Origin: an uncultured delta proteobacterium
Lineage (GTDB): Bacteria; Myxococcota; UBA727; VGSZ01
Assembly (NCBI GenBank): GCA_963775425.1
Contig: CAVZJB010000011.1
Location: forward strand, 128,001 to 192,000
Direction: 5' to 3'
Length of the DNA: 64,000 nucleotides
Shown: piece after piece, positions 36,646 to 53,650 of the stretch
Position numbering within the stretch: the stretch's first letter is position 1
How the letters are laid out: each line of letters opens with the position of its first letter
Program-made: the position numbers and the translations under genes
Notes under the pieces: model-generated
What the model was told of the DNA's origin: nothing
The model's input: the letters and a program-made list of their open reading frames with translations, nothing else
The model's database searches: none

Positions 36646-36870
36646 GCTGCACCTCCTCGTTGCACGTCGCGATGGGGCCGGAAGGGCGACGCCGTCGGAT
36701 CCGATGCTACCGACATGCGTCCCGCCTGAAGAGCCCTCGGCTCGGGCGTTCCGACGCGTCACCGGGGACATGCCGTCGGCGCGGAGGGACCTGCGGGTCA
36801 CCGGTGATGCTCGCCGCCAACGCCACAACGACAGCGAGGACGGGCACAGTGCGTGTATAACAGCCTTCGC

Positions 36871-38202
36871 ATGACGCGCGACGACGAGACCACCATGGGC
36901 CCGAGCCAGGCTCGCGCGCGGCACCCGCCACGCGCGACGCTGCGGGTGGTGTTCTCGGGCGACGCCCCGACCGTCGACGTTCACGCGTTGCGCCAGGGGA
37001 CCACCGCCGTCGGCCGCAGCGTCGACGCCGTGCTCGGCATCCGCCTCGACGACCCGCGGCTGTCGCGCGAGCACGCCGTCGTCGTCGTCGACGGGGGCCG
37101 CGTGCGCGTGGTGAACAAGAGCCAGCACGGCACGTTCCAAAACGGCGTGGCCGTCGAGGACGCCCTGCTCGCCGACGGCGACGTGCTTCAGCTCGGCGAC
37201 ACCTTCGCCGTCTTCCGGCTCGTGCCCGCGGACGTCGTCGACGTGATCAACAACGCCATCATCGGCGTGTCGCCGGCGGCGGCCCAGTTGCGCTCGACGG
37301 TGAAGCTCGTCGGGCCCACCGGCGCCTCCGTGCTGCTGCTCGGGCCCACCGGCGCCGGCAAAGACGTGCTCGCCCGCGCCCTCCACGACGAGAGCGGGCG
37401 CACGGGCGCGTTCATCGCCGTGAACGCCACGGCCATCCCCGAGAGCCTCGCGGAGAGCCAGCTCTTCGGCCACCTCGCCGGATCGTTCACGGGCGCCAAG
37501 GGCGATCATCCGGGGTGGTTCCGGCAGGCCGACGGCGGGACGCTGTTCCTCGACGAGGTCGGCGACATCCCGCTCGCGCTCCAGCCCAAGCTCCTGCGCG
37601 TCCTCGACGAACGGCGCGTCACTCCGGTGGGCGCCGCCCACGCCGTGCCGGTCGACGTCCGCGTGCTCGCCGCCACCAACGCGGACCTCGAGGCCCGCGT
37701 CGCCGACGGCCGCTTCCGCGGTGATCTCTACGCGCGGCTCGCCGAGATCTCGGTGCGGCTGCCGCCGCTGTCGGCGCGCAAGGAAGACGTGATGCCGCTG
37801 TTCGAGCACGCGCTGCCCAAGGGGCACGCTCCCTACGAGCCCGCCCTCGTGCGCGCGCTGCTCGCGTACGCGTGGCCCTACAACGTGCGTGAGGTGATGA
37901 AGGTGGCCACCGAGCTCGCCGTGCGCGGCGAGGGCCGCCCGCTGCTGGCGCTGGACCTCGTGGAGGAGCGGCTGCGCAGCCGCCCCGCGCCCGCCGGGGG
38001 CCCCCCGGCGACGAGCGCGCCCGCGCCCGCCGGCGACCCCGCGCGCGATCCGGTGCCGGACAAGGAGCAGCTTCAAGAGCTGCTCAAGCGCCATCGCGGC
38101 GTCATCGCGGAGATCGCCCGGGCCACCGGCCGCTCGCGCAAGCAGGTCTACCGCTGGCTCGACAAGCACGGCCTGCGCGGCGCCCTCGCCGACGACACCT
38201 GA
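36871..38202 (+). CDS. FHA-domain sigma54-dependent enhancer-binding protein
   Basis: FHA (GR..D..LSREH..S.HGT..NG), Walker A GPTGAGKD, GSFTGA loop, FLDEVGD, WP.NVRE, C-terminal HTH. Confidence 0.93.
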   Translation: MTRDDETTMGPSQARARHPPRATLRVVFSGDAPTVDVHALRQGTTAVGRSVDAVLGIRLDDPRLSREHAVVVVDGGRVRVVNKSQHGTFQNGVAVEDALLADGDVLQLGDTFAVFRLVPADVVDVINNAIIGVSPAAAQLRSTVKLVGPTGASVLLLGPTGAGKDVLARALHDESGRTGAFIAVNATAIPESLAESQLFGHLAGSFTGAKGDHPGWFRQADGGTLFLDEVGDIPLALQPKLLRVLDERRVTPVGAAHAVPVDVRVLAATNADLEARVADGRFRGDLYARLAEISVRLPPLSARKEDVMPLFEHALPKGHAPYEPALVRALLAYAWPYNVREVMKVATELAVRGEGRPLLALDLVEERLRSRPAPAGGPPATSAPAPAGDPARDPVPDKEQLQELLKRHRGVIAEIARATGRSRKQVYRWLDKHGLRGALADDT

Positions 38203-38364: not shown

Positions 38365-38670
38365 TCACCAGCGCTTGCCGCCGCGGCCACCGCCGCCGCC
38401 GCCGCCGCCGAAGCCGCTCTCCTTGGGGCGCGCGACGTTCACCGTGAGCGCGCGGCCTTCGTACATCTGCCCGTCGAGGGCGCTGATGGCGGCCTTGGCC
38501 GCCTGGTCGGTGCCCATCTCGACGAAGCCGAAGCCGCGGGAGCGGCCGGTCTCGCGATCGGTGACGATCGAGGAACGATCGACGCTGCCGTAGCTGGCGA
38601 AGAGCTGCGCGAGCTGCTCCTCAGTGGTGTTGAACGAGAGGTTTCCGACGTAGAGCTTGTTTTCAGCCAT
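38365..38670 (-). CDS. RRM RNA-binding protein with a Gly-rich tail
   Basis: KLYVGNL (RNP2), RSRGFGFVEM (RNP1), GGG tail. Confidence 0.95.
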   Translation of the reverse strand: MAENKLYVGNLSFNTTEEQLAQLFASYGSVDRSSIVTDRETGRSRGFGFVEMGTDQAAKAAISALDGQMYEGRALTVNVARPKESGFGGGGGGGGRGGKRW

Positions 38671-38818
38671 TTGAGAACTTTCCCGGGAACTGCTGCGCCT
38701 TCCCACCGTCACCCATTGACGGCATGGAAGCCCAGCTTCTGGACGCTTGCGAGCGCGCGACGGCTGCTGTTTTGAGGGGCAGTGGGGCGAGCAAACAGGT
38801 CGAACCAGACCTGTGTAC

Positions 38819-38920: not shown

Positions 38921-41596
38921 CTACGGGCTCCGGTGGCATTGCGCGCACTTCTCGGACTTGTGCTCGTAGCCCTGGACGTCCTTGTGGTTCTTGGCCTCGA
39001 TATCGGCGTTGTGCGCGTGGCACTCGGCGCAGCGCACGGGGACCCCGGCGCAGCTCCCTGTGGAGGCCGCGCCGCGCAGGCCGGAGTGGCACTCGTTGCA
39101 GGAGACGGGTGCGTGGACGCCGCGCAGGATCGGGAAGCAGGCCTCGTGCTGCAGGAACGCCGCCGGCGTGAAGGCCACCGGCTGGTGGCAGGTGCGGCAG
39201 TCGGCGGTGAAGGGGGCGCGCGCGTGGTCGACGGTGACGAGCGACGCGCGCGCGGCGTCCTTGGCGTGGCACGCGACGCACGCGAGCGCGGCGCGGCTGA
39301 ATGTGCGCTCGCGCTTCTCGATGTGGCACTCCTCGCAGGGCAGGGCGGCGTGGCGGCCGACCAGCGGGAAGTTCGTGCGCCGGTGCGCGTCGACGGTGAA
39401 GTTGGGCGCGTTGAAGCCGTCCTCGGTGTGGCAGGAGCGGCACATCAAGCCGAACTCCTGCGCGTGCGGATCCTGATGGCAGCCCGCGCAGCTCGTCGGG
39501 ATGGGACGCGACGTATCGCCGCCGTGGCAGTCGACGCAGCCGACGCCGCGGTGCTTGCCGACGAGCGGGAACGGCGTCCTGTCGTGGGCGAAGCGCGCCG
39601 GCGACCACCCCTTGGGCGCGTGGCACGCGTCGCAGCCGACGGCGTTTTTGCCGGTGGCGTCGAGCGCGAGGTGCGCGAGGGCGTCCTCGGGCCCCGCCAC
39701 GGTCGTCGTCGCCGTCTCCGTCGCCGCCGTCGTCGTCGTTGCACCGTGCACGGGGGGCGCCGCCTTCGCGTCCTTCGGCGCGGGCGCCTTCGTCGTCGCC
39801 GCGGCCTCAGCGGGGGCGGGCGCGCGCGACGGGCCGGGGGCCGGCGCGAAGTCGTTGAAGCCGCCCTTGTGCTCGTCCTGGTGACAGCTCGCGCACGCGG
39901 TCGGCAGTGGCTTGTAGCGCGCGGTCTTCAAGGTGCCGGTGTCGATGACCTCGTGGCACGCGGCGCAGCGCGCGGTCTTGTGCTTGCCCTCGAGGGGGAA
40001 CGAGCTTTGTTTGTCGTGATCGAACTTGGCCGGCTTGAAGCCCTTGGTGGAGTGGCACTGCTCGCACGCCGTGACGCCGTCCTTGGCGAGCTGGCCGACG
40101 TGTTGGTCGGCGTGGCACGAGGCGCACGCGGTGTCGACGGGCTTGTACATGACGATGCCCCGCATGTGCCCCTTGGCGTCGGCGGCGGGGTAGTGGCACG
40201 CGCCGCACTCCACGGCCTTGTGCTTGCCCGTGAGCGGGAAGCGGCTGTCGTCGTGGTTGAACACGATCTTGTCGAACGACGACGCCTGGTGGCATTGGTC
40301 GCACGCCTTGCCCTTGTCGCCGCTGAACTGCCCGCCGTGCGGATCGCGGTGGCAGGCCTCGCACTTGCCCGTGGCGTCGGGCAGCGCCAGCTTCACGTCG
40401 CTCACCAGGAGCGGGCGGCCGTGGCGCGACAGCTCGCGCCTCACCGACGACGGCACCTTGCGCAAGAGCCCGCGGTCGCTCTTGTGGCAGAGGTTGCAGG
40501 CGACGGCGCGGTGGGAGCCGGCGAGGGCGAAGCGGGTGTCGTCGTGCATCTTCACGTCGAAGAGCACCGGGGTGAAGCCCGTGACCGAGTGGCACTTCTC
40601 GCAGTCGGCCTTCACTTGCCCTTCGTGTGCGTCGGCGTGGCACGCGCCGCAGGTCTCGTGCTTCAAGCCCTTGAACACCGCGCGCTGTCCGGGGAACGGA
40701 CCGTGGCAGCTCTTGCACGCCACCGACGTGTGCTCGCCGCGCAGCGGGAACTTGGTCTTGTCGTGGAAGCCTGTGTCGTGCGCGGTCTGCTTGATGACCT
40801 TCCAGCCGCTCTCGCTGTGACACTTGACGCAGTTCTTGCCGAACTCGCCGTGGTGCACGTCGTCGTGACACGCGAGGCAACTGTTCTGGCCGATGCCCTT
40901 GAGCTGCATCTGCATGTACGTGCGCGCGCGTGGCTTGGGGAACGCGTCCATGCGCGTGCTCTCGTCGGTGGCGTCCTCGTGGCACTTGGCGCATGCCACG
41001 GAGTTGTGGCGGCCCTTCAAGCGGAAGTCGGCGAGCGGCGGCTTGTGCACGAAGCGCGTAGGCTTCCAGTCGTCGTTGCCGTGACAGCGCGTGCACTCGT
41101 TGCCCTCCTGGCCGCGGTGCTCGTCGAAGTGACACTTGGTGCAGGCCGACGACAGGCCGAGGAACGTGCGTGTCCGCTTCTTTTCCGTGAGGAGCTTCTT
41201 CACTGCGCCGTCGAGGATGCGCCGGGCCTCGTGACAGTCGCGGCAGTCGTTCTTCTGGTGGGCGCCGTGGAGCGGCCAACCCGTGAGCGCGTGGTTGAAG
41301 CTCCGCATGGACCAGTGGATGAGCGAGTCGCCGGTGCCGCCCTTGTGCTCCTTGTGGCACTCGGCGCACAGCTCGTTCTTGTTGCGCGCGTGGTAGCCGA
41401 CGCCCTGGTCGATGCGCGACGCGATCTCCTTGTGGCAGGCGAGGCACTTGGGGTTCGAGTGCTTGCCGCCCTCCTCGTGGCACTTGGTGCACGACGTCAG
41501 GCCGTCGAGCTGCTTGTGCGCGCTCGACAACGGCCCCGGCGAGAACACCTGCGCCGCGATCTGCGCCGAAGACAGGAGGATGACGGCCGCAATCAC
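38921..41596 (-). CDS. Multiheme c-type cytochrome, 30 CxxCH motifs
   Basis: Hand count of 30 CxxCH in triheme repeats (FPL.G.H..CxxCH..CxxCH...H....CxxCH); N-terminal SPGPLS.AH; GTG start overlaps the upstream stop. Confidence 0.92.
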   Translation of the reverse strand: MIAAVILLSSAQIAAQVFSPGPLSSAHKQLDGLTSCTKCHEEGGKHSNPKCLACHKEIASRIDQGVGYHARNKNELCAECHKEHKGGTGDSLIHWSMRSFNHALTGWPLHGAHQKNDCRDCHEARRILDGAVKKLLTEKKRTRTFLGLSSACTKCHFDEHRGQEGNECTRCHGNDDWKPTRFVHKPPLADFRLKGRHNSVACAKCHEDATDESTRMDAFPKPRARTYMQMQLKGIGQNSCLACHDDVHHGEFGKNCVKCHSESGWKVIKQTAHDTGFHDKTKFPLRGEHTSVACKSCHGPFPGQRAVFKGLKHETCGACHADAHEGQVKADCEKCHSVTGFTPVLFDVKMHDDTRFALAGSHRAVACNLCHKSDRGLLRKVPSSVRRELSRHGRPLLVSDVKLALPDATGKCEACHRDPHGGQFSGDKGKACDQCHQASSFDKIVFNHDDSRFPLTGKHKAVECGACHYPAADAKGHMRGIVMYKPVDTACASCHADQHVGQLAKDGVTACEQCHSTKGFKPAKFDHDKQSSFPLEGKHKTARCAACHEVIDTGTLKTARYKPLPTACASCHQDEHKGGFNDFAPAPGPSRAPAPAEAAATTKAPAPKDAKAAPPVHGATTTTAATETATTTVAGPEDALAHLALDATGKNAVGCDACHAPKGWSPARFAHDRTPFPLVGKHRGVGCVDCHGGDTSRPIPTSCAGCHQDPHAQEFGLMCRSCHTEDGFNAPNFTVDAHRRTNFPLVGRHAALPCEECHIEKRERTFSRAALACVACHAKDAARASLVTVDHARAPFTADCRTCHQPVAFTPAAFLQHEACFPILRGVHAPVSCNECHSGLRGAASTGSCAGVPVRCAECHAHNADIEAKNHKDVQGYEHKSEKCAQCHRSP

Positions 41597-43815
41597 GGCA
41601 GGATCCACTTGAAGCCGAGGTACAGGCTCACGCCCACGTGGGCGCCGATGAGGACCACCATGAACAGCGCGAGCACCACGTGGATCACGAGCCAGCCACG
41701 GAAGAGGCGCTTGAGGCCGGCGTAGAACGAGATCTGCAGACGCGAGCGCGCGATGAGCATGAGGCCGCTCTTGAAGGTCTCGAAGGCCTTGGCGTCGACG
41801 AAGTAGGGGCGCGCGCTCTCGATGCTCCTGTGCAGGTGGCGGCGCGCCCGCGGATCTTCGACGACGGCGCGGAAGAACGAGCGCTGCTTGGGCGCGGCGT
41901 CGGCGAGGGCGAAGAGCTGGTGCACCAGCTCGGCGTTGGTGGCGTCCTCGAGGTGGGGCTCCATGCGTTTGCGGATGTCCTGAAGCTGCGTGCGCACCTC
42001 GGAGAGCGCCAACACCTTGCCGGCCTGCGCGGGCACGAACCCGAAGAGGAAGCGGCCGATGACGCCGGTGCCGACCACGATGGACAGGGCGATCCAGGTC
42101 CACACCGCGAGCAGGTTGTTGAGCATGAACGCCGCGTGAAACGCGATCACCAGCGGGCTCATGATGCCGACGAACATGTGGAACGTGAGCCACGTGCGGA
42201 TGGACGCGGTCCCCTTCAACGCCCGCCAGCGCTTCCGCAGCGCGTACAAGAAATTGAAGATCATGAACGTGGTGGCGATGACGCCGACGCCGTGGCCCCA
42301 CAGCCCGGCGGGCTTGAGGAACTCGTCGCCGGGCAGCCCCGCGCGCGCGTCCACCGGGAACGTGTAGTAGTCGCGCCCGACGAAGAAGAGGCCGGTGATG
42401 ATGGCCGAGCCGAGCGCGAACAGGAACAGCGCGAGCCGCCGCCGGGTGCGCGCCTCCACCTCCGCCTTGGTCGGGCCGCGCGCGGGGCCGCCCGCGCCCT
42501 TCTCCTCGCCGAGGTACTTGCGGATGGCGACGCCGACGGACTTCAAGAACGCGGTGGGCACCTCGCCGCCGGCGGAGACGATGACGCGATCGTTCTTGAG
42601 GCGCCCCTCGCCGTCGGCGGTGTCGAGGACGACGGCGCGGTCCTCGATGCTCTTCACCTGGCTGCTGAACAGCGCGCGCACGCGGCCCTCGTCGATGAGC
42701 CGTTGGACGTTGTCGCGGTTGCGGGGCTTGGCGCGCGAGAAGCTCGACTGGCGGTACGAGATGCTGACTTTGGCGGTGCTCTCCTCGGCGAGCTGTACGG
42801 CGGCTTCGACGGCGGAGTCGCCGCCGCCGACGACGAGGACGCGCTGCCCGTGGTACTGCTCTGGATCGACGAGGCGGTACGTGACCTTGTCGAGGTCCTC
42901 GCCGGCCACGCCGAGCTTGCGCGGCGTCCCGCGCAACCCGGTGGCGAGCACCACCGCGCGCGCCTGCACGGCGAGGCCGCGCGACGTGGTGATGGTGAAC
43001 ATGCCCGCCTGTCCCTCGATGCCGACGACCTTGTGGCCCTCGTCGACCTTGATCTCGTTCTTCTGCAGCACCACCTGCAGCTCGGAGAGCAGCTCCTCCT
43101 TGGACAGGAGCGAGCGGCCGAACTTGCCGTAGCCCGGCACCATCACCTGCTCGCTCATCACCACCTTGCCGCGCGGGTAGTGGGCGATGCAGCCGCCGAG
43201 GGTCTCCTGCTCGAACACCCGCGCGACGAGGCCCTGCTCCTTGCAGGACACGGCGCACGCGATGCCGGCGGGGCCGCCGCCGACGACGGCGACGTCGACG
43301 AGGGTGCCTTGCGCCTGCGTGCCCTTCAGCTTGCCTTTCAGCGAGCGCCCGACGTCGATGCCCTGGCGGAGCGCGTTCTTGATGAGGCCCATGCCGCCGA
43401 GCTCGCCGATGACGTAGACGCCCGGCCGGCTCGACTCGAACTTGTCGTCGGTGTCGGGGAGGTCGACGCCCTTTTCGGCCGAGCCGAACACGAGCTTGAT
43501 GGCGCCGACGGGGCACTCCACCGCGCAGCGCGCGTGGCCGATGCAGTGCGCGGCCTCGACGAGGGTGGCGACGCCGCCGACGACGCCGATGATGTCGCCC
43601 TCGGGGCACGCCTTGATGCACGAGAAGCTGCCGATGCACAGCGTGGGGTCGATGACGGGGTGGAGCGACGGCGGCGTGCTCTGTCCCTCGGCGACCGCGA
43701 GCTGCAGCGCGCGCTCGCCCGCCGTGGACATCGCGCGGCGACGGAACAAAAGGATGACGATGGCCGCCAGCAGGACGGCCGCGACGGTGAAGGAGATGAT
43801 CAGCGTGTCACTCAC
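41593..43815 (-). CDS. Membrane flavoprotein: TM anchor, 2x[4Fe-4S] ferredoxin, TrxB-like FAD/NAD(P)H domain and His-bearing multi-TM domain
   Basis: CIGSFSCIKACP and CIGHARCAVECP; GGGPAG, ATG and GGGDSA; C-terminal TMs with GHGVG, WLTFHM, AFHA, VIHV and GAHV. Confidence 0.88.
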   Translation of the reverse strand: MSDTLIISFTVAAVLLAAIVILLFRRRAMSTAGERALQLAVAEGQSTPPSLHPVIDPTLCIGSFSCIKACPEGDIIGVVGGVATLVEAAHCIGHARCAVECPVGAIKLVFGSAEKGVDLPDTDDKFESSRPGVYVIGELGGMGLIKNALRQGIDVGRSLKGKLKGTQAQGTLVDVAVVGGGPAGIACAVSCKEQGLVARVFEQETLGGCIAHYPRGKVVMSEQVMVPGYGKFGRSLLSKEELLSELQVVLQKNEIKVDEGHKVVGIEGQAGMFTITTSRGLAVQARAVVLATGLRGTPRKLGVAGEDLDKVTYRLVDPEQYHGQRVLVVGGGDSAVEAAVQLAEESTAKVSISYRQSSFSRAKPRNRDNVQRLIDEGRVRALFSSQVKSIEDRAVVLDTADGEGRLKNDRVIVSAGGEVPTAFLKSVGVAIRKYLGEEKGAGGPARGPTKAEVEARTRRRLALFLFALGSAIITGLFFVGRDYYTFPVDARAGLPGDEFLKPAGLWGHGVGVIATTFMIFNFLYALRKRWRALKGTASIRTWLTFHMFVGIMSPLVIAFHAAFMLNNLLAVWTWIALSIVVGTGVIGRFLFGFVPAQAGKVLALSEVRTQLQDIRKRMEPHLEDATNAELVHQLFALADAAPKQRSFFRAVVEDPRARRHLHRSIESARPYFVDAKAFETFKSGLMLIARSRLQISFYAGLKRLFRGWLVIHVVLALFMVVLIGAHVGVSLYLGFKWILP

Positions 43816-43847
43816 GACGCGTCCGCCTCGACGAGGCACGTCCCGCG

Positions 43848-43863
43848 AGCAACTCGCGTGCCG
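43848..43863 (-). promoter_or_regulatory. Sigma54 promoter of the flavoprotein/30-heme operon
   Basis: Minus strand CGGCACGCGAGTTGCT (GG-N10-GC, consensus-like CACG and TTGC), 33 nt upstream of the GTG. Confidence 0.7.
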
Positions 43864-43864
43864 T

Positions 43865-43953
43865 GATCAGCGACCCGAGGGAGCGGCCGCGCTTGATCAA
43901 GCGACCGGAGGGAGCGGCCGCGCTTGATCAAGCGACCGGAGGAGCGATCGCGC
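43865..43953. repeat. Three ~31-bp tandem repeats (GATCAAGCGACCGGAGGGAGCGGCCGCGCTT)
   Basis: Units at 43865, 43895 and 43926; the core CGACCGGAGGGAG also occurs at 38248-38260. Confidence 0.85.
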
Positions 43954-43976
43954 GGAGCACCGCCACCGACCATGCC

Positions 43977-44783
43977 TCACATCCCCATATAGAGGAGCAC
44001 GCCGCCGGTGCCCGCGAGGGCGACGCCGACACCGGCGACGAGCAGCATGGCGGTGGCGACGTTGGCGGCGCCTTCCTTGGCGGGGCCGAGGGAGTCGGGG
44101 TCGCGGATGATCCCCACCTGGCTGGCCGCGACAGCGCCGCCGCCGAGGCACAACAGCGCGCCGCCGCCGAGCGCGGCGATGCCGCCGACCGCCATGGGCG
44201 TGAGCGCCACGGGCGGCGGATCCGCCGGCGGCGCCTCGGGCTGAAGCGGCTTCATGCCGGGATCGCCCTTGGCCGTGCCCGTGGTGGGGTGGGGCGGGGC
44301 GGTGGTGCTCGTCGACGTGGAGGTGGCGGCCGTGGGGGGCTTGGCCTTGTCAATCGCGCCCTTGAGCGCCTTGATGACGGCGGCGGGGACCACGGAGCCG
44401 CCGCCGAGGACGTCGTCGGCGCGGGCGGCGCTCTCGTCCTGGGCGATGGAGCGGCCGTCGGTGTTGACGAGGTGGGCCTCGAGCTGCACCTGCCCGCCGG
44501 CGCGCAAGGCCTCGACCCAGACCAGCCACGTGGCGTCGGCGGTGCGGAGCACCTCCTTGGCGCACGCGTGATCCGTGAGGCACTCGGTCTTCACCGACAG
44601 CGCCTTGGACAGCGCCCACAGCTCGGCGCCGGTGCCGTTGATCTCCGCGTCGACCTTGTCCTGCACGTGGCGGGCGTCGTCGTCGGCGAAGCCGGCGGTG
44701 TGCACGACGACGGCGACGCGCGTGCCGCCGGGCGCCGCGGCGAAGCTCAACGCCGCGGCGAGGACTGCTGCGCCGAGGGTCAC
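43977..44783 (-). CDS. Exported protein with C-terminal hydrophobic segments (kinase-associated; resembles the N- and C-regions of PEGA-type proteins)
   Basis: Signal peptide, C.....C motif, Pro/Thr linker, two Gly/Ala-rich hydrophobic C-terminal segments; start overlaps the kinase stop. Confidence 0.7.
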   Translation of the reverse strand: MTLGAAVLAAALSFAAAPGGTRVAVVVHTAGFADDDARHVQDKVDAEINGTGAELWALSKALSVKTECLTDHACAKEVLRTADATWLVWVEALRAGGQVQLEAHLVNTDGRSIAQDESAARADDVLGGGSVVPAAVIKALKGAIDKAKPPTAATSTSTSTTAPPHPTTGTAKGDPGMKPLQPEAPPADPPPVALTPMAVGGIAALGGGALLCLGGGAVAASQVGIIRDPDSLGPAKEGAANVATAMLLVAGVGVALAGTGGVLLYMGM

Positions 44784-46744
44784 GACCGGATCCTCCCGAG
44801 CGCGGCAAAGGCGGCGTTCAGCGTGCGGTTGGCGGCGTCGTACTTTCCGTCTTTCATCTCTCTCAAGACCTCGCCCGCCAGAGCGTCAAGCTGTTTTCGT
44901 GCGGCCGCGTCGGGGGCGGTCGCATCGTAACGCTCGTTGAACCGTAACAGTTTTTTTCGAACGAACCCTTTGTCGATTTCGATGGCGTCGGCGCGCCGTC
45001 GCGCGTCGAGCGCCATGTCGCCGGCCTCGGAGAATCGCCGCGTCCGGGCGGCGTTGAGCACGCGTGCCCGGAGCCTGTCGAGCTCGCCGTCGTCGCCGGA
45101 CTGAAGGCCCTTTTGCGCCAGCAGTCGATCGAGGGCCGCTCGTTGCTCGGCGTAGTGCCGCTGGTCGGTGGCTCGGGTGTCTCCGTGGTGCGCCCGCGGC
45201 CGGGGCGCGTGCGACGGCGGCGCGGCGTGCTCGGCCTCCTCCGCCGTCGCCGGCGGGTCCTCGGCGTCGGGGGCGGGATCCGGGGCGGGATCGGCCGGCG
45301 GATCGGCGGGCGGATCGGCGGGGGGATCGTCGGGCGGATCCGCCGGCGCGGCGTCGGCAGCCGGCGGATCGGCCACCGTCGCGGGCTCGTCACGGGCGTC
45401 GCGCGCGACGACGACGGCGACGGCCACGACGGCGACGGCGGCGGCGACGCCGAGGAGCGGCTTGAGCCTGCTCTTCCCGGGGCCGAGCAGCGCTTTGTCC
45501 TCGTCGCTGACGACGCGCAGCGCCGGCTGGGGCAGGAGCTGGGTGTCCTTGGCGAGGAGCGCGGGCCCCGCGGGCTGGCCGCCGATCACCCACGACGCGG
45601 ACGACCGCGGGTCTTCATCCACGCGGATGGCGCTTTCGAGCCGCGGCGGCGCGCGCGCCGGCTCCTCCGCGGGGTCGGTGGGCGGCAGGCTGACGATGGT
45701 GACGTCGGCGGTGAGCGGCGGCGCGTTTTCATCGGTGCTGTGGGCGGGCTCGTTTTCGTCCGTGGTGCGCACCGGTCCGCGCGTGAGCGTGGGCGCGTCG
45801 GGGCGCACGGGAGGAGGCGGGCGGGTCAGCGGGTCCGGCTCCGACGACGTGTCTCCCAACGAGACCGGCATCGGCGACGGAATCGTCTTCACGTCGTCGT
45901 CGGGGATGCTCTTCTCGATGTCCGCGAGCGCGCGCGCGAGGGCGCGGGCATCGGGGTAGCGCTCGTCCGGGGAGAAGGCGAGGGCGCGCAGCGCGATCGG
46001 GCTCACGGCGGCGGGGAGATCCTTGCGCACCAGGTGCGGAGGCGGCGGGCGCGACTTGGACATCGCCTCGAGGAGCATGACGTCGCTGCTCGCGGAGAAG
46101 GGCATCTTGCCGGTGAGACAGTTGTAGAAGATGACGCCGACGCCAAACTGGTCGGATCGGGGCGTCGCCGGCCTCCCCGCCCAGACCTCCGGCGCGATGT
46201 AGTGGCGCGTGCCGAGGGCCACGCCGGGGAGCGTGAGCGACGAAGCGCCGTCGAGCGCCTTGGCGATGCCGAAGTCGAGCAGCGTGACCTCGTCGTCGTC
46301 GCGCACCATGATGTTGCGCGGCTTGAGGTCCCGGTGGACGACGCCGACGTCGTGGGCGGCGGCGAGGGCGTCGCAGATGTTGCGGCAGATGGCGAGGGTG
46401 CGGCGCACGGGGAGCGGTGGGACGTCGGCGCCGAGGAGATCGCGCAGCGGGATGCCGTCCGCGACCTCCATGGTGATGAAGCGGACGCCCTTGTCCTCGT
46501 GCAAGTCGTGGAGCCGGCAGACGCCTTTGTGCACGATGCGGCGCGCGAGCACGATCTCGCGGTTGAAGCGCTCGACGGCCTCGGGGTGCGCCGCGAGCGC
46601 GGGGTGCAACACCTTCACGCAGAGGCGCTGCTTGAGCAGCGTGTCCTCGGCGAGGAACACCATGCCCATGGCGCCGCGCCCGAGCTCGCGCTCGAGGCGA
46701 TAGCGGCCCAGCCGCTCGCCGGCTCTCAGCTGGTCGGCCTGCAT
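44780..46744 (-). CDS. Membrane Ser/Thr protein kinase
   Basis: LGRGAMGMV, HRDLKPRN, DFGIAK, GTRHYIAPE; Pro/Asp-rich linker, TM, helical C-terminal domain. Confidence 0.93.
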   Translation of the reverse strand: MQADQLRAGERLGRYRLERELGRGAMGMVFLAEDTLLKQRLCVKVLHPALAAHPEAVERFNREIVLARRIVHKGVCRLHDLHEDKGVRFITMEVADGIPLRDLLGADVPPLPVRRTLAICRNICDALAAAHDVGVVHRDLKPRNIMVRDDDEVTLLDFGIAKALDGASSLTLPGVALGTRHYIAPEVWAGRPATPRSDQFGVGVIFYNCLTGKMPFSASSDVMLLEAMSKSRPPPPHLVRKDLPAAVSPIALRALAFSPDERYPDARALARALADIEKSIPDDDVKTIPSPMPVSLGDTSSEPDPLTRPPPPVRPDAPTLTRGPVRTTDENEPAHSTDENAPPLTADVTIVSLPPTDPAEEPARAPPRLESAIRVDEDPRSSASWVIGGQPAGPALLAKDTQLLPQPALRVVSDEDKALLGPGKSRLKPLLGVAAAVAVVAVAVVVARDARDEPATVADPPAADAAPADPPDDPPADPPADPPADPAPDPAPDAEDPPATAEEAEHAAPPSHAPRPRAHHGDTRATDQRHYAEQRAALDRLLAQKGLQSGDDGELDRLRARVLNAARTRRFSEAGDMALDARRRADAIEIDKGFVRKKLLRFNERYDATAPDAAARKQLDALAGEVLREMKDGKYDAANRTLNAAFAALGRIRS

Positions 46745-46905
46745 TTCGGAGGTCACAGTACACCCACCTGGTCTCTCTACGCCCGCGCACGTCCGACGCG
46801 AGCGCCGCGTGCGCCGCCCGCGTGCGCGCCCGCGTGCGCGCCCGCTTCGCCTCGCATGGAGCCACACGCGGCGGGCGCGCTCCGGTGGCGGCGGGCGCGT
46901 CGATG

Positions 46906-46921
46906 TGGCGCAGGGGTTGCT
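46906..46921 (+). promoter_or_regulatory. Sigma54 promoter of the lipoprotein/29-heme/beta-barrel operon
   Basis: TGGCGCAGGGGTTGCT (GG-N10-GC, TTGC), 41 nt upstream of the ATG at 46962. Confidence 0.72.
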
Positions 46922-46961
46922 TCGCGATCGCGGTCCACGTCGGACGACGTAGGATCGCCCC

Positions 46962-47840
46962 ATGAAGACCTTGCCCTCTTTCCTGATTCCCGCCGCCCTC
47001 GCCGCCGTGTTCTTCGGGGTCCTTGGCGCCGGGTGCGCCGCCCTCCTCGCCGACGCCCCTTGCAGCAGCGATCAGAACTGCCCGAGCGGCCAGCTCTGCA
47101 GCGACGGAGTCTGCGCCCCGGCTGACGTCGTCGCCGAGGGCGAGGGCGAAGGAGAAGGAGAGGGCGAAGGAGAAGGCGAGGGCGAAGGCGAGGGCGAAGG
47201 AGAGGGAGAAGGCGAAGGAGAGGGCGAAGGCGAAGGCGAAGGCGAGGGCGAAGGCGAAGGCGAGGGCGAAGGAGAGGGCGAAGGAGAGGGAGAAGGCGAT
47301 CCCTGCAGCCCCGGCGGCACCGTCAACAGCGTCGACCAGTTCTCGGGCTGCACCGCCGTCACCGCGGACATCACCCTCACAGGTGGCTCGCTCACCGGGC
47401 TCTCGGGGGTCGAGACCGTCAACGGCAGCCTCAGCATCAGCAACATCGAGAACAGCCTCAACAACCTGGGTGCGCTCCAGACCGTGTCCGGGGATGTGAC
47501 GTTCAGCGGCGGCGACACCAACAGCGGCGCGGGCAACGCCCTCGGCAACCTCCAGAGCATCGGCGGCGACCTCGTCATCCACAACGGCGGCGTCGATCTG
47601 CACACCATCAACGGCTACGGCCAGCTCCAGACCATCGGCGGCTCGCTCGTCATCCACAACAACTCGGCGCTCACCAGCGTGAGCGCCACCGCGTTCGCGA
47701 GCCTCACGTCGATCGCCGGCTCGCTCGACCTCGACCAGAACCCCGTCCTCGCGTGCACCGGCGGGGTGCCGAGCCTGAAGACCGCGGCGGGCGACCGCGT
47801 CACGCTCGGCACCAACGGAACCGCCGGATGCACGCCCTGA
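46962..47840 (+). CDS. (Glu-Gly)n-tract lipoprotein 4 with a receptor-L-domain-like solenoid
   Basis: Lipobox GAGC, 4-Cys motif, ~27 EG units (47136-47297), L..L..(I/V)GG.L.I.NN repeats. Confidence 0.85.
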   Translation: MKTLPSFLIPAALAAVFFGVLGAGCAALLADAPCSSDQNCPSGQLCSDGVCAPADVVAEGEGEGEGEGEGEGEGEGEGEGEGEGEGEGEGEGEGEGEGEGEGEGEGEGEGEGDPCSPGGTVNSVDQFSGCTAVTADITLTGGSLTGLSGVETVNGSLSISNIENSLNNLGALQTVSGDVTFSGGDTNSGAGNALGNLQSIGGDLVIHNGGVDLHTINGYGQLQTIGGSLVIHNNSALTSVSATAFASLTSIAGSLDLDQNPVLACTGGVPSLKTAAGDRVTLGTNGTAGCTP

Positions 47841-50287
47841 GCGCAGCGCGCTGCTGCGCTGTCCTCGCGGTCATCGCCGCGACCGGCTGCGCGCCGAAAG
47901 CGCCCGCGCTCACCTTCGGCGTCAGCACCGGCGAGCACGACGCCTATTTCCTCATCGGCAGGGGGGAGCACCACGCGCTCGGCAAGCGCGCCGACGACGG
48001 CCCCATCCAGTGCAGCTCGTGCCACGCCGCCGGCAGCGACAGCTTCACCGAGTTCTCGTGCACCGGCTGCCACGAGCATCGCCAGGACGTCACCACCGGC
48101 ATCCACTCCGGCATCGCCGAGTTCCGCTACGACAGCGCGAGCTGCCTGTCCTGTCACCCCGGTGGCAACGCCGACATCGACGGCATCGACGACGCGACGC
48201 ACACGCGCGAGTACTTCCCCATCGACGATCACAGCGCGCACAAGGCGGTGCAGTGCTCCGGTTGCCACACGCACGCCGACGACCGAACCATCGTCACCTG
48301 CACCGGCTGCCACGACCACGCCGCCGACGGGCAGGAGGTGCACGGCTCGGCGGAGCTGCAGGCGGTGCACGGGCAGATGACGGGCTACGCGTGGGACACG
48401 CAGAGCTGCCGCGATTGTCACGCGAAGAGCGAGAACCCGGGCAGCTACGATCACACGGCGTTCCCGACGGCGGCGGGCACGTCGCACGAGGGCATCTCCT
48501 GCGCCGCGTGTCACGCCACGCCGCAGGATCGCTCGCAGCTTTTGTGCGTCACCTGCCACGAGCACAACCAGGTCGAGACCGACGCCGCGCACGCCGACGT
48601 CCCCGACTACCGCTACGACTCCGGCAGCTGCGTCCTCTGCCACGCCCAGTCGCAGGTGCCCGGCGAGATCGATCACTCCACGTTCTTCCCCATCGACACC
48701 GGCGCCACGCACGCGCTCGGCACCGTCGTGGACAACGCCGGCCTCGTCCCCGACGAGACCATCGCCTGCACGTCGTGCCACAAGAACCCCACCGACAACT
48801 CGCAGGCCACGTGCCTCGGCTGCCACGCGCACTTCGAGGACGTGCTGCAGCCCATCCACGACGGCATCGCGGGCTATGCGTGGCAGGACTCGAGCTGTCT
48901 GTTCTGCCATCCGCACGGTGAGCCCGACGGCTACCTCTCCGAGCACCCCGAGTTCCCCATCGCGTCGGGCGACGCCCACCAGGGCATCGCGTGCGCGGAG
49001 TGCCACGCGTCGCAGACGGATCGCTCACAGCTCCTGTGCACGTCGTGTCACGTGCTCACCGACATGGAGCCCGTGCACCGGAGCCTGCCGGGATGGCAGT
49101 TCGACAGCACCGCCTGCTTCACGTGTCACGCGCAGTCGCAGGTGCCGGGGACGTTCGACCATGAGCCCTACTTCCCGCTCGTCGGCACGCAACACGCGCT
49201 CGGCGCCCCGAACAACCTCGTGTGCACCGACTGCCACAGGGACCGCACCAACCGCACGCTGCTCGACTGCACCGGCTGCCACCTCGGCAGCCACGACCAG
49301 GCGCCGATGAACACGGCGCACACCGGCGTCCCGAGCTACTCGTGGACGCCGGCGTCGTGCGTGGGCTGTCACCCGAACGGCACCGCCGCCGGCGCCGTGT
49401 TCTCGCACCCCTACTTCCCCATCACGGCCAACGACACACACGGGCAAAACGGCATCGCCTGCGCCGACTGCCATACGAACCCCGCCGACAACACCGTCGT
49501 CGAGTGCACCGCGTGCCACCTGGGCAGCCATGATCAGACGCCGATGACGCAGCGGCACGCAGACGTCCCCGGCTTTCAGTGGTCGACGTCCCAATGCCTG
49601 TTCTGCCACCCCAACAGCGAGCCCGTCGGCAACATCGATCACGCGCGCTTCTTCCCGATCACGGCGGGGTCCGCGCACGCGGGCATCGCCTGCGCCGACT
49701 GCCACATCGATCCGAACAACCGGCAGACGCTCGGCTGCGCGCAGTGCCACCAAGGCGACACCAACCCGACCATCGCGGCGGTGCACCAGGGCATCCCGGG
49801 CTTCGCGAGCACGTCGACGGCATGCCTGCAGTGCCACCCGCACTCGGAGTCGGTCGGGACGATGGATCACCAGGCCTACTTCCCCATCGGCGCGGGCTCC
49901 CAGCACGCGTCGGCGGCGTACGCGGCCAAGATCGCCTCAGGGCAGAACCAGTGCTCGGCGTGCCACGTCTCGCGCACCGATCGCACGCAGGAGAATTGCG
50001 CGAGCTGCCACGCCGGGGTCTCGCCGACGCCGTCGTCGTCCCACGGCTCCGTCGGCGGCTTCTCCAACAACTCCGTGAATTGCAAACAGTGCCACGGTGA
50101 TGCGCAGGTGGACACGCTTCGGTCGCACACCGTATTCAGCCCTACACACCACCGGGCCAAATGCATCGACTGCCACCGCACCTTCCGCAGCGACAAGCCC
50201 TTCGCCATCAATTTCACGCAAGGCGTGTGCACCAAGTGCCACTCGTCGTCGTGCACGGTGAACAACAGGAACGCATGCGGCGACTGA
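47828..50287 (+). CDS. Multiheme c-type cytochrome lipoprotein, 29 CxxCH motifs
   Basis: Hand count of 29 CxxCH in nine triheme repeats plus two; lipobox-like ATGC; overlaps both neighbours. Confidence 0.92.
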   Translation: MHALSAARCCAVLAVIAATGCAPKAPALTFGVSTGEHDAYFLIGRGEHHALGKRADDGPIQCSSCHAAGSDSFTEFSCTGCHEHRQDVTTGIHSGIAEFRYDSASCLSCHPGGNADIDGIDDATHTREYFPIDDHSAHKAVQCSGCHTHADDRTIVTCTGCHDHAADGQEVHGSAELQAVHGQMTGYAWDTQSCRDCHAKSENPGSYDHTAFPTAAGTSHEGISCAACHATPQDRSQLLCVTCHEHNQVETDAAHADVPDYRYDSGSCVLCHAQSQVPGEIDHSTFFPIDTGATHALGTVVDNAGLVPDETIACTSCHKNPTDNSQATCLGCHAHFEDVLQPIHDGIAGYAWQDSSCLFCHPHGEPDGYLSEHPEFPIASGDAHQGIACAECHASQTDRSQLLCTSCHVLTDMEPVHRSLPGWQFDSTACFTCHAQSQVPGTFDHEPYFPLVGTQHALGAPNNLVCTDCHRDRTNRTLLDCTGCHLGSHDQAPMNTAHTGVPSYSWTPASCVGCHPNGTAAGAVFSHPYFPITANDTHGQNGIACADCHTNPADNTVVECTACHLGSHDQTPMTQRHADVPGFQWSTSQCLFCHPNSEPVGNIDHARFFPITAGSAHAGIACADCHIDPNNRQTLGCAQCHQGDTNPTIAAVHQGIPGFASTSTACLQCHPHSESVGTMDHQAYFPIGAGSQHASAAYAAKIASGQNQCSACHVSRTDRTQENCASCHAGVSPTPSSSHGSVGGFSNNSVNCKQCHGDAQVDTLRSHTVFSPTHHRAKCIDCHRTFRSDKPFAINFTQGVCTKCHSSSCTVNNRNACGD

Positions 50288-51987
50288 AAGCACTCGCGCG
50301 CGCCGCACCGGCGCGTCCCACGACGGCGGCTCAGCGTCACGCGCGCGGCGCGGCGGGGCTGGTGGCGCTCGTGTGCCTCGTGATCCCCGTGGAGGCGCGC
50401 GCGGCGCCTGTGGCGTCGACGCGCGTCACGTTCGCGACGGCGAGCGCCATCTACGTCGACGCCGGCACCGCCGACGGCCTCGCGCAGGGCGCCAAGCTCG
50501 AGGCGCGGCACCGGCGGCGCGGCGCGGCCTCGTGCACCGTCGTCGAGATCGCCGCGCATCACGCGGTGTGCAAGGCCGACGGCAAGCGCGTGCCCGGCGT
50601 GGGCGATCGCCTGCGCTTCCAGCGCGCCGCCGCCGACGCGCCCGCCGCGGTGAAGCCGCGCCCCGACCCGCCCACGCCCGACGCGCTCGCGCCGCTGCGC
50701 AAGAAGGTCGAGGCCGCGCCGTTTCAGAAGGTGGCGTTCAAGAAGGCCCGCCGCGCGGCGCGGCCGGTGTGGACGGCGCGGGGCTCGACGACGCTGCGCC
50801 AACAGGTGTGGGCGACGTCGGGCAAGGACAACGTCTTCGCGCGCCCCTCGCTCGACGCCGGCGCGCGCGCGGGCATCGGCATCTTCCCCGGCCTGTACGC
50901 CGCCGGCGCGCTGCGCGTGCAGGGCGACGTGCTCGCGCCTCCCGAGCAGCGCTTCCGGCCCGGCGAGCTCCAGCTCTACCTGTGGAACGCGTCCGTCGGC
51001 GTCGCCGAGGGCGCCGTCGTCGGCGCCGCCGGCCGCTTCCGCCCCCAGAAGGCGCCCGGCCTCGAGCTCCTCGACGGCGCGCAGGCGGGCTTCCGCGCCT
51101 TCGGCGGCGCGCTCGAGGTGGGCGGCTACGCAGGCGCCATCCCCGACCTCGTCACGCTCGCCCCGTCCATCGACCGGCTCACCGGCGGCGCCTACTTCTC
51201 GCTCGACCTCGCGGCGGCCAAGGACGTCCTCGTCCTGCCGCGCGCGCGCGTCGGCCTCGTGAGCACCCCCGACGGAAAGACCGTGCGCGCGCTCGCGGAG
51301 GCGGAGACGCAGGTGCTCATCGACGGCGTCGTCGCCGCCGGCGGCTCCGCCCGCGTCGGCGCCGGCGGCACCGACGACCCGCTGCCCACCCTCGACGCCG
51401 CGCGCGCCGACCTCGACGTGCACACGGGCCCGCTGCACGTGGACGCCGGCTACCGCTACCTCGCGCCGCTCGCCGTCGACTTCGACGCGGCCTCGGGCGT
51501 CCCCACGGTGGGCGGCGCCCACCACGGCGACCTCGAGGCGCGCTACGCGCTGTCGTCGTGGCTCGTGATCGGCGCGGACAGCGGCGCCGGCTACGACGTC
51601 GCCACGCGCAGCGCCCGCGGCTACGCAGGGCCCATGGTCGAGCTGCCCACCGCGTTCGGCACGCTCGGCGGCCTCGAGCTGGGCTACGCCGAGGAGGCCG
51701 ACGTCGCCAAGATCCGGTGGAGCGGGCGCACGGCGTACCTCGCGGCCACCGTGTCGCCGCTCGACGTCGTTCGCATCGTCACGCGCGCCTCCTACTTCGA
51801 GGACGCCGCCATCAACGACTCGCTGCGCGAGGCCGCGCTGATGACGCTCATCGACGCGCCCGTGCTGCCGTGGCTGTCGGTGCGCGGCCGCGCGCAGGTG
51901 CAGGCGGCGCTGGCGCCTCTCGACGGCAGCACGCGCGCGTCGCCGACGACGCTTGTGGCGGATCTGGGCCTCTCCGGCTCTCTGTGA
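50275..51987 (+). CDS. Probable outer-membrane beta-barrel (porin) with an N-terminal small beta domain
   Basis: Signal peptide (EARA), IYVDAG..DGL..G domain, then long alternating amphipathic strands ending LVADLGLSGSL. Confidence 0.7.
   Translation: MRRLKALARAAPARPTTAAQRHARGAAGLVALVCLVIPVEARAAPVASTRVTFATASAIYVDAGTADGLAQGAKLEARHRRRGAASCTVVEIAAHHAVCKADGKRVPGVGDRLRFQRAAADAPAAVKPRPDPPTPDALAPLRKKVEAAPFQKVAFKKARRAARPVWTARGSTTLRQQVWATSGKDNVFARPSLDAGARAGIGIFPGLYAAGALRVQGDVLAPPEQRFRPGELQLYLWNASVGVAEGAVVGAAGRFRPQKAPGLELLDGAQAGFRAFGGALEVGGYAGAIPDLVTLAPSIDRLTGGAYFSLDLAAAKDVLVLPRARVGLVSTPDGKTVRALAEAETQVLIDGVVAAGGSARVGAGGTDDPLPTLDAARADLDVHTGPLHVDAGYRYLAPLAVDFDAASGVPTVGGAHHGDLEARYALSSWLVIGADSGAGYDVATRSARGYAGPMVELPTAFGTLGGLELGYAEEADVAKIRWSGRTAYLAATVSPLDVVRIVTRASYFEDAAINDSLREAALMTLIDAPVLPWLSVRGRAQVQAALAPLDGSTRASPTTLVADLGLSGSL

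Positions 51988-52031: not shown

Positions 52032-53650
<1,619 letters not shown>

Follow-up and report, generated by a model that had tools for sequence, protein, structure and literature searches.

Gene layout of the locus

We analyzed a 64,000-nt stretch of DNA (hereafter the window; G+C ~72%) from an uncultured delta proteobacterium (assembly GCA_963775425.1; source genome of 8.26 Mb, completeness 94.55%, placed in the phylum Myxococcota by its named relatives), in which two divergent operons encode a candidate electron conduit from the cytoplasm to the cell surface. The original prediction, made from the letters of this stretch, had described operon A as a fusion of Fe-S, flavoprotein and His-bearing membrane domains followed by a cytochrome with 30 CxxCH motifs, and operon B as a lipoprotein with a Gly-Glu (GE) run, a 29-CxxCH lipoprotein and a 570-aa protein. 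Gene content and heme count bore this out for operon A, as did the open reading frames (ORFs) and CxxCH counts for operon B. The genes also overlap inside each operon, as had been stated: the cytochrome gene start overlaps the fusion gene stop by 16 or 4 nt, depending on the start chosen, and the starts of the 29-heme and barrel genes each overlap the preceding gene by 13 nt. Coordinates are listed in Table 1, in which the inner-membrane protein (IMP) is that of PCC3, a predicted porin-cytochrome system described below.

Table 1. Features of the conduit locus, its flanks and its paralogue (window positions unless a contig is named)
Feature	Position	Strand	Description
Operon A fusion gene	41593..43815	-	740-aa flavo-FeS membrane protein; GTG start, alternative GTG 43839
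N-terminal transmembrane anchor, then RRR	43726..43815	-	residues 1-30; helix modelled over 3-42
Fe-S domain	43468..43662	-	non-canonical motifs C60xxS63xxC66xxxC70P and C91xxH94xxC97xxxC101P
YpdA/thioredoxin-reductase-like flavoprotein domain	42496..43323	-	assigned by Pfam, Foldseek and VIA-align
PCC3-IMP-like membrane domain	41596..42483	-	residues 445-740, 5 helices, 4-helix insert between helices 4 and 5
Operon A cytochrome gene	38921..41608 or 41596	-	895 aa, exported, 30 CxxCH, 29.8 aa/heme
20-heme module of 30-heme protein	39842..41608	-	residues 1-589
Ala/Pro/Thr-rich linker between heme modules	39653-39841	-	residues 590-652
10-heme module of 30-heme protein	38924..39652	-	residues 653-895
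GE-lipoprotein gene, operon B	46962..47840	+	GE-dipeptide run, Cys-rich N-terminus, Recep_L-like C-terminus
29-heme lipoprotein gene, operon B	47828..50287	+	819 aa, 29 CxxCH, ATGC lipobox
Barrel gene, operon B	50275..51987	+	570 aa, no Pfam/NCBIfam family
Sigma54-type -24/-12-like site	43848..43863	-	one mismatch; just upstream of fusion gene
Sigma54-type -24/-12-like site	46906..46921	+	one mismatch; 41 nt before ATG at 46962
Three tandem 31-nt repeats	43864..43953	.	TTGATCAA-centred palindromes; Tandem Repeats Finder: 3.0 copies, 91% matches
268-aa membrane protein	43977..44783	-	upstream of operon A
Ser/Thr kinase	44780..46750	-	Pkinase E 9e-41; upstream of operon A
FHA-domain sigma54 activator	36853..38202	+	Sigma54_activat E 1.5e-58, FHA E 3.5e-12; convergent with cytochrome gene
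Paralogous fusion gene	contig C4:375159-378047		962 aa

Homology of the membrane domain to the PCC3 inner-membrane protein

The last 300 residues of the fusion protein had no Pfam match in a whole-protein scan (E ≤ 0.01). Their layout, however, is that of a published protein family. The main text of He et al. 2017 (PMC5566968) defines PCC3 as a porin, an extracellular cytochrome, a periplasmic cytochrome and an IMP of ~300 aa, and gives the latter five helices, the fourth of which bears SGXXG and the third and fifth WX3HX13H. Five helices were likewise found in the model of the window's domain, with W542-x3-H546-x13-H560 on helix 3, GTGxxGR (G584xxG587R588) on helix 4 and W708-x3-H712-x13-H726 on helix 5, and these W, His and Gly motifs were invariant in 30 homologues. 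When the domain was aligned jointly with PCC3 IMPs (12 sequences, including five from Gallionellaceae/Sphingomonadales), W98, H102, H116, G140, G143, W264, H268 and H282 (domain numbering) were invariant. Furthermore, tblastn of the membrane domain against the Sideroxydans and Gallionella IMPs gave 23-25% identity (E 3.6e-16 to 1e-11), and the matched ORF stands directly upstream of the 24-heme gene in those loci. The gene order Slit_1446-1449 tabulated in PMC11429942 agrees with the order IMP, periplasmic cytochrome, extracellular cytochrome, porin seen at those loci. The sequence data thus indicate that the C-terminal domain of the fusion protein is homologous to the conserved IMP of PCC3.

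In the main text of PMC5566968 the IMP was likened to a ferric-reductase domain and proposed to be quinone-active, by analogy with bc1 and with the cytochrome b of hydrogenase. Scanned alone, the window's membrane domain scored 21.2 bits (E 3.1e-4) with Ferric_reduct (PF01794), which is sub-threshold against the gathering level of 28, and 7 of the 12 aligned membrane domains matched this family at E ≤ 10. The domain carries the four His residues of a putative di-heme b module, in which, judging by the model, H546/H712 would be close to the cytoplasm and H560/H726 close to the periplasm; two b hemes would presumably be bound there.

The family is large: 4744 cluster representatives match at E ≤ 0.001, of which 1049 still do so at E ≤ 1e-30. 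By length, the best 150 representatives comprised 19 of at least 700 aa (fused), 13 of 400-700 aa and 118 of less than 400 aa, and the nearest ESM Atlas clusters were unnamed hypothetical proteins of 312-345 aa. A wide structural search with the whole 740-residue model returned matches to the flavoprotein range (165-437) and was uninformative for the membrane domain.

The flavin and Fe-S domains of the fusion protein

In the Pfam scan the fusion protein matched Fer4_10 (E 2.9e-7), Pyr_redox_3 (E 6.3e-44) and Pyr_redox_2 (E 3.2e-27). Foldseek with residues 170-435 of its AlphaFold2 model (predicted local distance difference test score, pLDDT, 76.8; predicted template modeling score, pTM, 0.43) placed Bdr/YpdA (7a7b, E 2e-19) first, followed by thioredoxin reductases (TrxR), TrxR-type ferredoxin-NADP reductases (FNRs) and IruO with E-values up to 1e-13. 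VIA-align gave Z 23.1 to 7a76_A, with a root mean square deviation of 4.3 Å over 264 residues, and values down to 17.8 for others. The best NCBIfam model, TIGR04018 for YpdA/Bdr, scored 164.1 bits, below its cut-off of 339.9. GxGxxG (residues 179-184), which we take to be the FAD site, GGGDSA (330-335), which we take to be the NAD(P)H site, and Y354 and R355 were invariant in the 30-sequence alignment. No Cys of the flavoprotein domain was conserved in the same alignment, so that electrons would leave through the Fe-S domain rather than through a disulfide.

All eight positions of the two Fe-S motifs were invariant among these 30 sequences. Across the ORFs of 146 relatives, the second-ligand position of motif 2 was His in 145, and that of motif 1 was Ser (76), Cys (47), Ala (21) or Thr (2). 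In [NiFe] hydrogenases, electrons leave for the cytochrome through a 4Fe-4S cluster with a His ligand; by analogy, the His-bearing cluster is the likely contact to the inner heme. The flavo-FeS part would lie in the cytoplasm, as judged by the positive-inside rule (the anchor followed by RRR, and RKR after helix 2) and by the model. Separate Gallionellaceae flavoproteins bear the same N-terminal anchor as the fusion protein.

The paralogous fusion protein on contig C4 of the same genome has a charged, low-complexity insertion of ~215 aa inside its NAD(P)H-binding domain. Long forms of the fusion protein (~900-990 aa) also occur in three relatives (L002-L004; L numbers denote relatives' loci) and in several database proteins.

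Flavo-FeS module and IMP are fused, adjacent or divergent

The Fer4-flavoprotein part of the window's protein was 43-44% identical to a gene that stands divergent from PCC3 in Gallionellaceae. Relatives' loci were collected in two flavoprotein-based scans, one of 32 loci and one of 80, two of which duplicated earlier ones. In the first scan, flavoprotein and IMP were fused at 16 loci, adjacent at one and divergent at 11, with four cut by contig ends. The adjacent pair, from Gemmatimonadota, consists of separate genes with a 4-nt overlap, and the divergent loci belong to Gallionellaceae, Rugosibacter and Sphingomonadales, with the flavoprotein gene opposite an IMP-cytochrome-cytochrome-porin series. 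The second scan, which took in Bradyrhizobium, Hyphomicrobium, Amphritea, Candidatus Endoriftia, Novosphingobium aquae, Planctomycetota, Elusimicrobia and KSB1, gave 17 fused loci, 48 with a separate IMP gene within 7 kb and 15 with none, many of these on short contigs. Thirty-two distinct fused loci resulted (16 from the first scan and 16 new ones from the second). By group, the fused form is that of Myxococcota and others, the adjacent form that of Gemmatimonadota and KSB1, and the divergent form that of the Gallionellaceae family.

A further search started from the IMP, which removes the ascertainment bias of scans that begin with the flavoprotein. The IMP was carried by 58 of 121 sampled Gallionellaceae-family genomes. 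A divergent flavoprotein gene stood beside it at 43 of 50 loci, namely 28 of the 30 best-scoring IMP loci and 15 of 20 drawn from ranks 31-64 blind to neighbors, with 14 rows left out. Among Myxococcota, the membrane domain was present in 93 of 301 sampled genomes (a tally that includes one unpublished genome, on which no claim rests), and nearly all strong matches lay in frames of ~740-1000 aa, i.e., fused; the named genera with the fused form include Myxococcus, Archangium and Anaeromyxobacter. Genes that occur fused, adjacent and divergent in this Rosetta-stone manner are, at the level of gene arrangement, a classic mark of proteins that act while touching each other.

The terms "flavoprotein", "FAD" and "4Fe-4S" do not occur in the main text of He et al. 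2017 (PMC5566968). No flavoprotein or NAD(P)H partner of PCC3 was found in the main texts covered by a full-text library. Slit_1445, which we presume to be the locus tag of the flavoprotein neighbor of Slit_1446 (IMP), occurred in no main text of this library. Within the searchable literature, an NAD(P)H-type partner of PCC3 therefore appears to be undescribed.

A separate observation concerns a Planctomycetota metagenome-assembled genome (MAG), in which an IMP-like domain and a 26-CxxCH ORF overlap at length on the same strand, downstream of the flavoprotein gene (L146:9306-13706); either a fusion of IMP and cytochrome or a frameshift may lie behind this.

Two large multiheme cytochromes

Both large cytochromes of the window matched Mtrc-MtrF_II-IV_dom above its cut-off of 30 bits, the 30-heme protein with 48.3 bits and the 29-heme lipoprotein with 51.1. 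The former also matched Cytochrome_C7 (E 7.9e-36) and Cytochrom_c3_2, and the latter Cytochrom_CIII. Each has 72 His residues, enough for bis-His ligation of its hemes. Residues 1-589 of the 30-heme protein were 42% identical to the separate 20-heme gene product of a relative (L018), and residues 653-893 were 45-49% identical to those of the separate 10-heme genes of L018 and L008, indicating that it is a fusion of a 20-heme and a 10-heme cytochrome. Compared with the 24-heme PCC3 periplasmic cytochromes, the protein showed 27% identity over ~900 columns (E ~1e-61 to 1e-63). As in PCC3, a large multiheme cytochrome is encoded beside the IMP, the 30-CxxCH gene overlapping the fusion gene. In 28 of the 32 fused loci a multiheme ORF began no more than 2 kb downstream of the fusion gene; of the four exceptions, L002 and L109 stop at a contig end, L016 has no such ORF, and that of L019 lies at a distance of 4 kb. 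The 20-heme module is presumably the part that spans the periplasm.

The 29-heme lipoprotein would, by analogy with MtrC, be a surface-exposed partner of the conduit. Extra cytochromes encoded next to the barrel gene in relatives carried 7 to 51 hemes, and nine of nine had a signal peptide and a lipobox-like Cys. In the closest relatives (L005 and L006) no cytochrome gene stood between the GE-lipoprotein and barrel genes, and only in these two was the GE-lipoprotein gene kept beside the barrel gene. This comparison of loci identifies the 29-heme lipoprotein as a variable accessory.

Several very large cytochromes were encountered near related systems, namely a 51-CxxCH lipoprotein (L008:1470-5735) and, at proteobacterial loci, ORFs of 48 and 39 CxxCH (L172:2-3598; L164 and L165). 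Long Gly-Glu runs were observed in several predicted proteins (window 30603-32147, 46962-47840 and 54561-55880; contig C10 ~6420-6710), where they drew spurious "TrAA12-like" Pfam matches; they may be a lineage-typical acidic spacer between lipid anchor and functional domain.

A predicted outer-membrane barrel with a cytochrome predicted in its lumen

For the barrel protein 31 homologues were collected, all unnamed or "hypothetical", and 26 of them were aligned. The AlphaFold2 model built from this alignment (pLDDT 83.4, pTM 0.65) showed a signal-peptide region, a small beta domain (residues 46-116) and 22 strands (167-569). Foldseek against the PDB returned 329 matches at E ≤ 0.001, and all among the matches listed were outer-membrane barrels, including MOMP, chitoporin, OccK/OprD porins and the FimD and PapC usher pores. 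These results support the view that the 570-aa protein is an outer-membrane beta-barrel, a point on which the original prediction had let its case depend.

The complex of barrel residues 160-570 with the 10-heme module was predicted from alignments of 26 and 22 rows, respectively. The interface score ipSAE was 0.77, 0.75 and 0.77, and three controls all gave 0.00; the partner's pLDDT was 72 and at least 78% of contacts agreed between runs. Among solved complexes 116 of 157 attained the ipSAE mark, as did 2 of 215 mismatched pairs; these counts are approximate for the custom alignments used here. The barrel residues in contact alternate along nearly every strand and so face the lumen, which places the cytochrome inside the barrel as MtrA is placed in MtrB. 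The 10-heme module is thus predicted to bind in the barrel lumen.

A link between the barrel and PCC3 porins suggested by hhalign (probability 54%, E 1.3e-4) was rejected, because the porin alignment had included a member of the barrel's own family, the Gemmatimonadota porin (E 1e-22).

Linkage of the two operons

The same genome contains a second version of the system, on contig C4, in which the genes of an 8-heme lipoprotein, a barrel (47% identity), a 962-aa fusion protein and a 30-heme cytochrome lie on one strand. Barrel family members were encoded in the same locus at 20 of the 32 fused loci, with 9 more cut by contig ends, and also at two split loci (L030 and L156), in three different gene orders overall. 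In Myxococcota the fusion gene is as a rule followed by the 20-heme, 10-heme and barrel genes in that order, and sometimes then by the gene of a further lipoprotein cytochrome. The co-occurrence of the two operons, on which the original prediction likewise depended, therefore holds in many genomes by synteny and in this genome by the one-strand paralogue. Gene neighborhoods thus indicate that the two operons form one system.

An Acidobacteriota MAG encodes a full-length fused protein (L016:10007-12241) with neither a multiheme cytochrome nor a barrel within 10 kb on either side; its partners are either encoded elsewhere, or it has another acceptor.

Proposed electron path and its alternatives

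On this evidence we consider it probable, at roughly 60%, that the locus encodes a PCC3-type trans-envelope conduit whose IMP is fused to a cytoplasmic electron-input module. In such a conduit, FAD bound by the cytoplasmic YpdA/TrxR-like domain would be reduced by NAD(P)H, and electrons would pass from it to two Fe-S clusters, one with the conserved His at a ligand position and the other with Ser, Cys or Ala. They would then cross the inner membrane over two bis-His b hemes, from H546/H712 on the cytoplasmic side to H560/H726 on the periplasmic side, and enter the 20-heme module of the 30-heme cytochrome, which would span the periplasm. The 10-heme C-terminal module, in the lumen of the 22-strand barrel, would carry them across the outer membrane to the 29-heme surface lipoprotein and on to an extracellular acceptor (mineral, humic substance, other cell or oxygen). 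The path would have 59 c-hemes in total and would require no quinone. With an outlet of this kind NAD(P)+ would be regenerated but no energy conserved at this step, as in NOX and the yeast ferric reductases. Outward flow is favored because it runs downhill from NAD(P)H and along the membrane potential. We infer the cofactor occupancy, the surface exposure and the acceptor.

A trans-envelope wire of 59 hemes fed by NAD(P)H had been part of the original prediction. The wire itself gained from the predicted placement of the 10-heme module in the barrel and from the four His residues of the di-heme b module, but its NAD(P)H donor and its outward direction are suggested only by domain families. It had further been stated that no quinol dehydrogenase is encoded in the window, and this holds for the two families tested: no PF03264 (NapC/NirT/CymA type) match was found in the whole genome, and none of three NrfD matches in the genome lies inside the window.

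Several observations weigh against the NAD(P)H-driven conduit. The complex score may lean on the solved MtrAB complex, and a profile of five proteobacterial PCC3 porins misses both the window's barrel (E ≤ 10) and that of Gemmatimonadota. The membrane domain stays below the Pfam gathering level (21.2 versus 28 bits) and has no sequence relative among solved structures, the best match being a coiled coil at E 0.25. The AlphaFold2 model of the fusion protein has low confidence for the Fe-S domain (pLDDT 40-50) and for the way its domains pack (pTM 0.43), and so fixes no FeS-to-heme distance. Three fused loci with full flanks (L008, L016 and L019) have no barrel gene, and in one of them, the Acidobacteriota L016, the fused gene has no multiheme cytochrome gene within 10 kb. 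No flavoprotein gene accompanies the IMP at 7 of the 50 Gallionellaceae-family loci. A quinone site on the di-heme domain is possible, and NrfD-type proteins are encoded elsewhere in the genome. TrxR-type reductases are bidirectional, so the family does not set the direction of flow. Finally, PCC3 is best known from Fe(II) oxidizers, for which inward flow is assumed in the main texts of the sources, PMC5566968 among them.

Some of these points belong to a quinone-coupled conduit as in the published PCC3 model, with the di-heme b domain exchanging electrons with the quinone pool and the flavo-FeS module serving as feeder or accessory. We regard this arrangement as unlikely. The main text of He et al. 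2017 (PMC5566968) proposes a quinone-active cytochrome b, 3 of the 12 membrane domains weakly match the quinone-reactive family Ni_hydr_CYTB, and the seven IMP loci without an adjoining flavoprotein gene fit it as well. The covalent fusion, or a neighbor with a 4-nt overlap, in many phyla argues instead for direct transfer from Fe-S cluster to heme, and no quinone-site motif was identified, though none was searched for. The genome also has no NapC/CymA-type proteins, a finding that does not bear on the membrane domain itself.

The same chain could also run inward, from extracellular Fe(II), humics, a cathode or another cell through the b hemes, Fe-S clusters and flavin to NAD(P)+ or another cytoplasmic acceptor. 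TrxR-type FNRs are reversible. According to the main texts of the sources, PCC3 is enriched in Fe(II) oxidizers, and the IMP gene of one PCC3 copy is upregulated in iron-oxidizing cells of Sideroxydans sp. CL21. We nevertheless think such an inlet quite improbable: inward electrons would oppose the inside-negative membrane potential, they would have to climb several hundred mV between Fe(II) and NAD(P)+, the cluster encodes no energy-coupling subunit, and a disulfide acceptor is unlikely given the flavoprotein domain's lack of a conserved Cys.

Another purpose for the same proteins would be a redox supply to the periplasm or envelope, with NAD(P)H charging the cytochromes as a capacitor or detoxifying oxygen, peroxide or oxidized metals in the manner of MsrQ or NOX. 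The weak kinship of the membrane domain to the ferric-reductase/MsrQ superfamily is consistent with this, as are the presence of the system in Myxococcus sp., Archangium and Myxococcaceae, which are largely aerobic, and the very variable heme count of the surface cytochrome (0 to 51). A dedicated barrel with a cytochrome predicted inside it, together with the lipoprotein cytochromes, points beyond the outer membrane, however, and makes a purely envelope-directed role improbable; it shares most steps with the NAD(P)H-driven conduit and differs only in purpose. That the operons are unrelated neighbors and the 570-aa protein an ordinary porin is hardly credible, for although the operons diverge in the window with the kinase and 268-aa genes between them, and the barrel has no family annotation, the barrel family recurs beside fusion and cytochrome genes (20 of 32 fused and two split loci, in three orders), the paralogue lies on one strand, and the complex prediction scored 0.77 versus 0.00 for controls.

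Comparison with known systems

By homology of the IMP, the flavoprotein and the periplasmic cytochrome, the locus can be assigned to the PCC3 kind. As there, a homologous IMP is followed by a long periplasmic multiheme cytochrome and accompanied by a second cytochrome and an outer-membrane barrel. Here, however, the IMP is fused to a flavo-FeS module, a 20-heme and a 10-heme cytochrome are joined into one 30-heme protein, a lipoprotein would serve as the surface cytochrome, the genes lie in two divergent operons, and the barrel is not detectably homologous to the proteobacterial PCC3 porin. The published model, moreover, couples the IMP to quinone, and a flavoprotein goes unmentioned in the main text (PMC5566968). 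PCC3 clusters (PMC5566968; Gallionellaceae survey PMC9900912) are a prediction from genomes, functionally untested. The original prediction expected hypothetical homologues and knew of no characterized example; the PCC3 clusters, proposed in 2017, are nonetheless described relatives of the system.

The Shewanella MtrCAB system (solved complex, PDB 6R2Q) resembles the window's system in having a decaheme cytochrome in a barrel, a placement that is only predicted in the present case, and, presumably, a multiheme lipoprotein outside. Mtrc-MtrF_II-IV_dom, as noted, is common to both large cytochromes of the window. In contrast, the window's barrel has no Pfam/NCBIfam match (E ≤ 0.01) and thus none to MtrB_PioB, and has 22 modelled strands compared with the 26 of MtrB. 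With the DmsE/MtrA model TIGR03508, for which the cut-off is 192.2 bits, the 30-heme protein scored 46.4 and the 29-heme protein 40.2. Mtr receives its electrons from the quinol dehydrogenase CymA, whereas this genome has no NapC/CymA-type gene.

With NOX/FRE and MsrQ/YedZ the system would share NAD(P)H, a flavin, two putative bis-His b hemes on helices 3 and 5, and an acceptor outside. Its flavin domain, however, is N-terminal and of TrxR/YpdA type rather than C-terminal and of FNR type as in NOX; two Fe-S clusters would be interposed; the helices number five rather than six; the acceptor would be a multiheme cytochrome; and the Ferric_reduct match lies under the Pfam gathering score. The TrxR-type FNRs, Bdr/YpdA and IruO (3lzw, 3ab1, 7a7b, 5twb) are the best fold matches and have the two dinucleotide-binding motifs, but the window's domain is membrane-anchored, joined to ferredoxin-like and cytochrome b domains, and has no conserved Cys. 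By analogy, the outer-membrane part of the system would work as MtrCAB does, and its inner-membrane part as NOX/FRE does. The Rnf-MmcA system of Methanosarcina also links a cytoplasmic low-potential donor to a multiheme cytochrome without a separate quinol dehydrogenase, and the Geobacter Pcc and ImcH-CbcL routes are envelope-spanning cytochrome chains. The Anaeromyxobacter Pcc of Shi et al. 2014 (PMC4245776), described in its main text as a two-gene cluster with a 12-heme cytochrome of 338-344 aa, is probably not this system, as cytochrome sizes and heme counts differ: the 10-heme proteins here measure ~240-255 aa from first heme motif to end and have no atypical motifs.

Regulation and flanking genes

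The original prediction had given each operon a sigma54 promoter. A one-mismatch site does precede each operon: three one-mismatch matches to TGGCACN5TTGCW were found in the window versus 1.03 expected, two of them correctly placed and oriented, and two-mismatch matches were at chance (16 versus 16.8 expected). The sites are not conserved, however; no equivalent was found in the closest relatives, in which hardly any space separates the fusion gene from the gene upstream of it. Three 31-nt repeats, which may be bound by the neighboring FHA-sigma54 activator, stand between the sigma54-like site of the fusion gene and the 268-aa gene. Orthologues of this activator (57-62% identity) occupy the same position in L005, L006 and L007, and those of the kinase and 268-aa genes (65-69% identity) do so in L005 and L006. 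Judging by their positions, the kinase and the 268-aa membrane protein are probably regulatory.

A second Ser/Thr kinase gene (52032-53654) begins 45 nt past the barrel gene and is followed by that of a PEGA-domain protein (53949-54536), so that kinase genes flank the conduit on both sides. A small RRM-type RNA-binding protein with a Gly-rich tail is encoded between the cytochrome and sigma54 activator genes (38365-38712, minus strand).

Implications for PCC3-type conduits

Porin-cytochrome conduits underlie microbial metal reduction, iron oxidation, electrosynthesis and corrosion, and to our knowledge all characterized ones hang on the quinone pool. PCC3-type conduits were seen in Myxococcota, Pseudomonadota (alpha, beta and gamma), Gemmatimonadota, Acidobacteriota, Planctomycetota, Elusimicrobia and KSB1. 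PCC3 has often been cited since 2017 with its inner-membrane partner left open, and the fusion described here names a concrete NAD(P)H-type flavo-FeS partner, suggesting that PCC3 is plugged into a flavoenzyme and not only into the quinone pool.

We tentatively extend this to PCC3-type conduits in general, which could be quinone-independent, NOX-like NAD(P)H:extracellular-acceptor oxidoreductases in which a Fer4-flavoprotein anchored in the membrane, whether fused or separate, would pass electrons to a di-heme b protein and a cytochrome wire across the periplasm, an extension that we hold with less than even confidence. If it is true, the assumptions of quinone coupling and of a role of PCC3 in Fe(II) oxidation would both be wrong, and bacteria would own a second, unrecognized vent for cytoplasmic reducing power, one that is electrogenic and, instead of conserving energy, draws on the membrane potential as its driving force. 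If the link between flavoprotein and IMP holds, PCC3 genes in metagenomes would be read as an electron outlet or redox valve and not as a marker of iron oxidation, and one inner-membrane protein would be a compact module for wiring cytoplasmic NAD(P)H to electrodes. The principle of NOX and the ferric reductases would thereby be extended to a two-membrane envelope.

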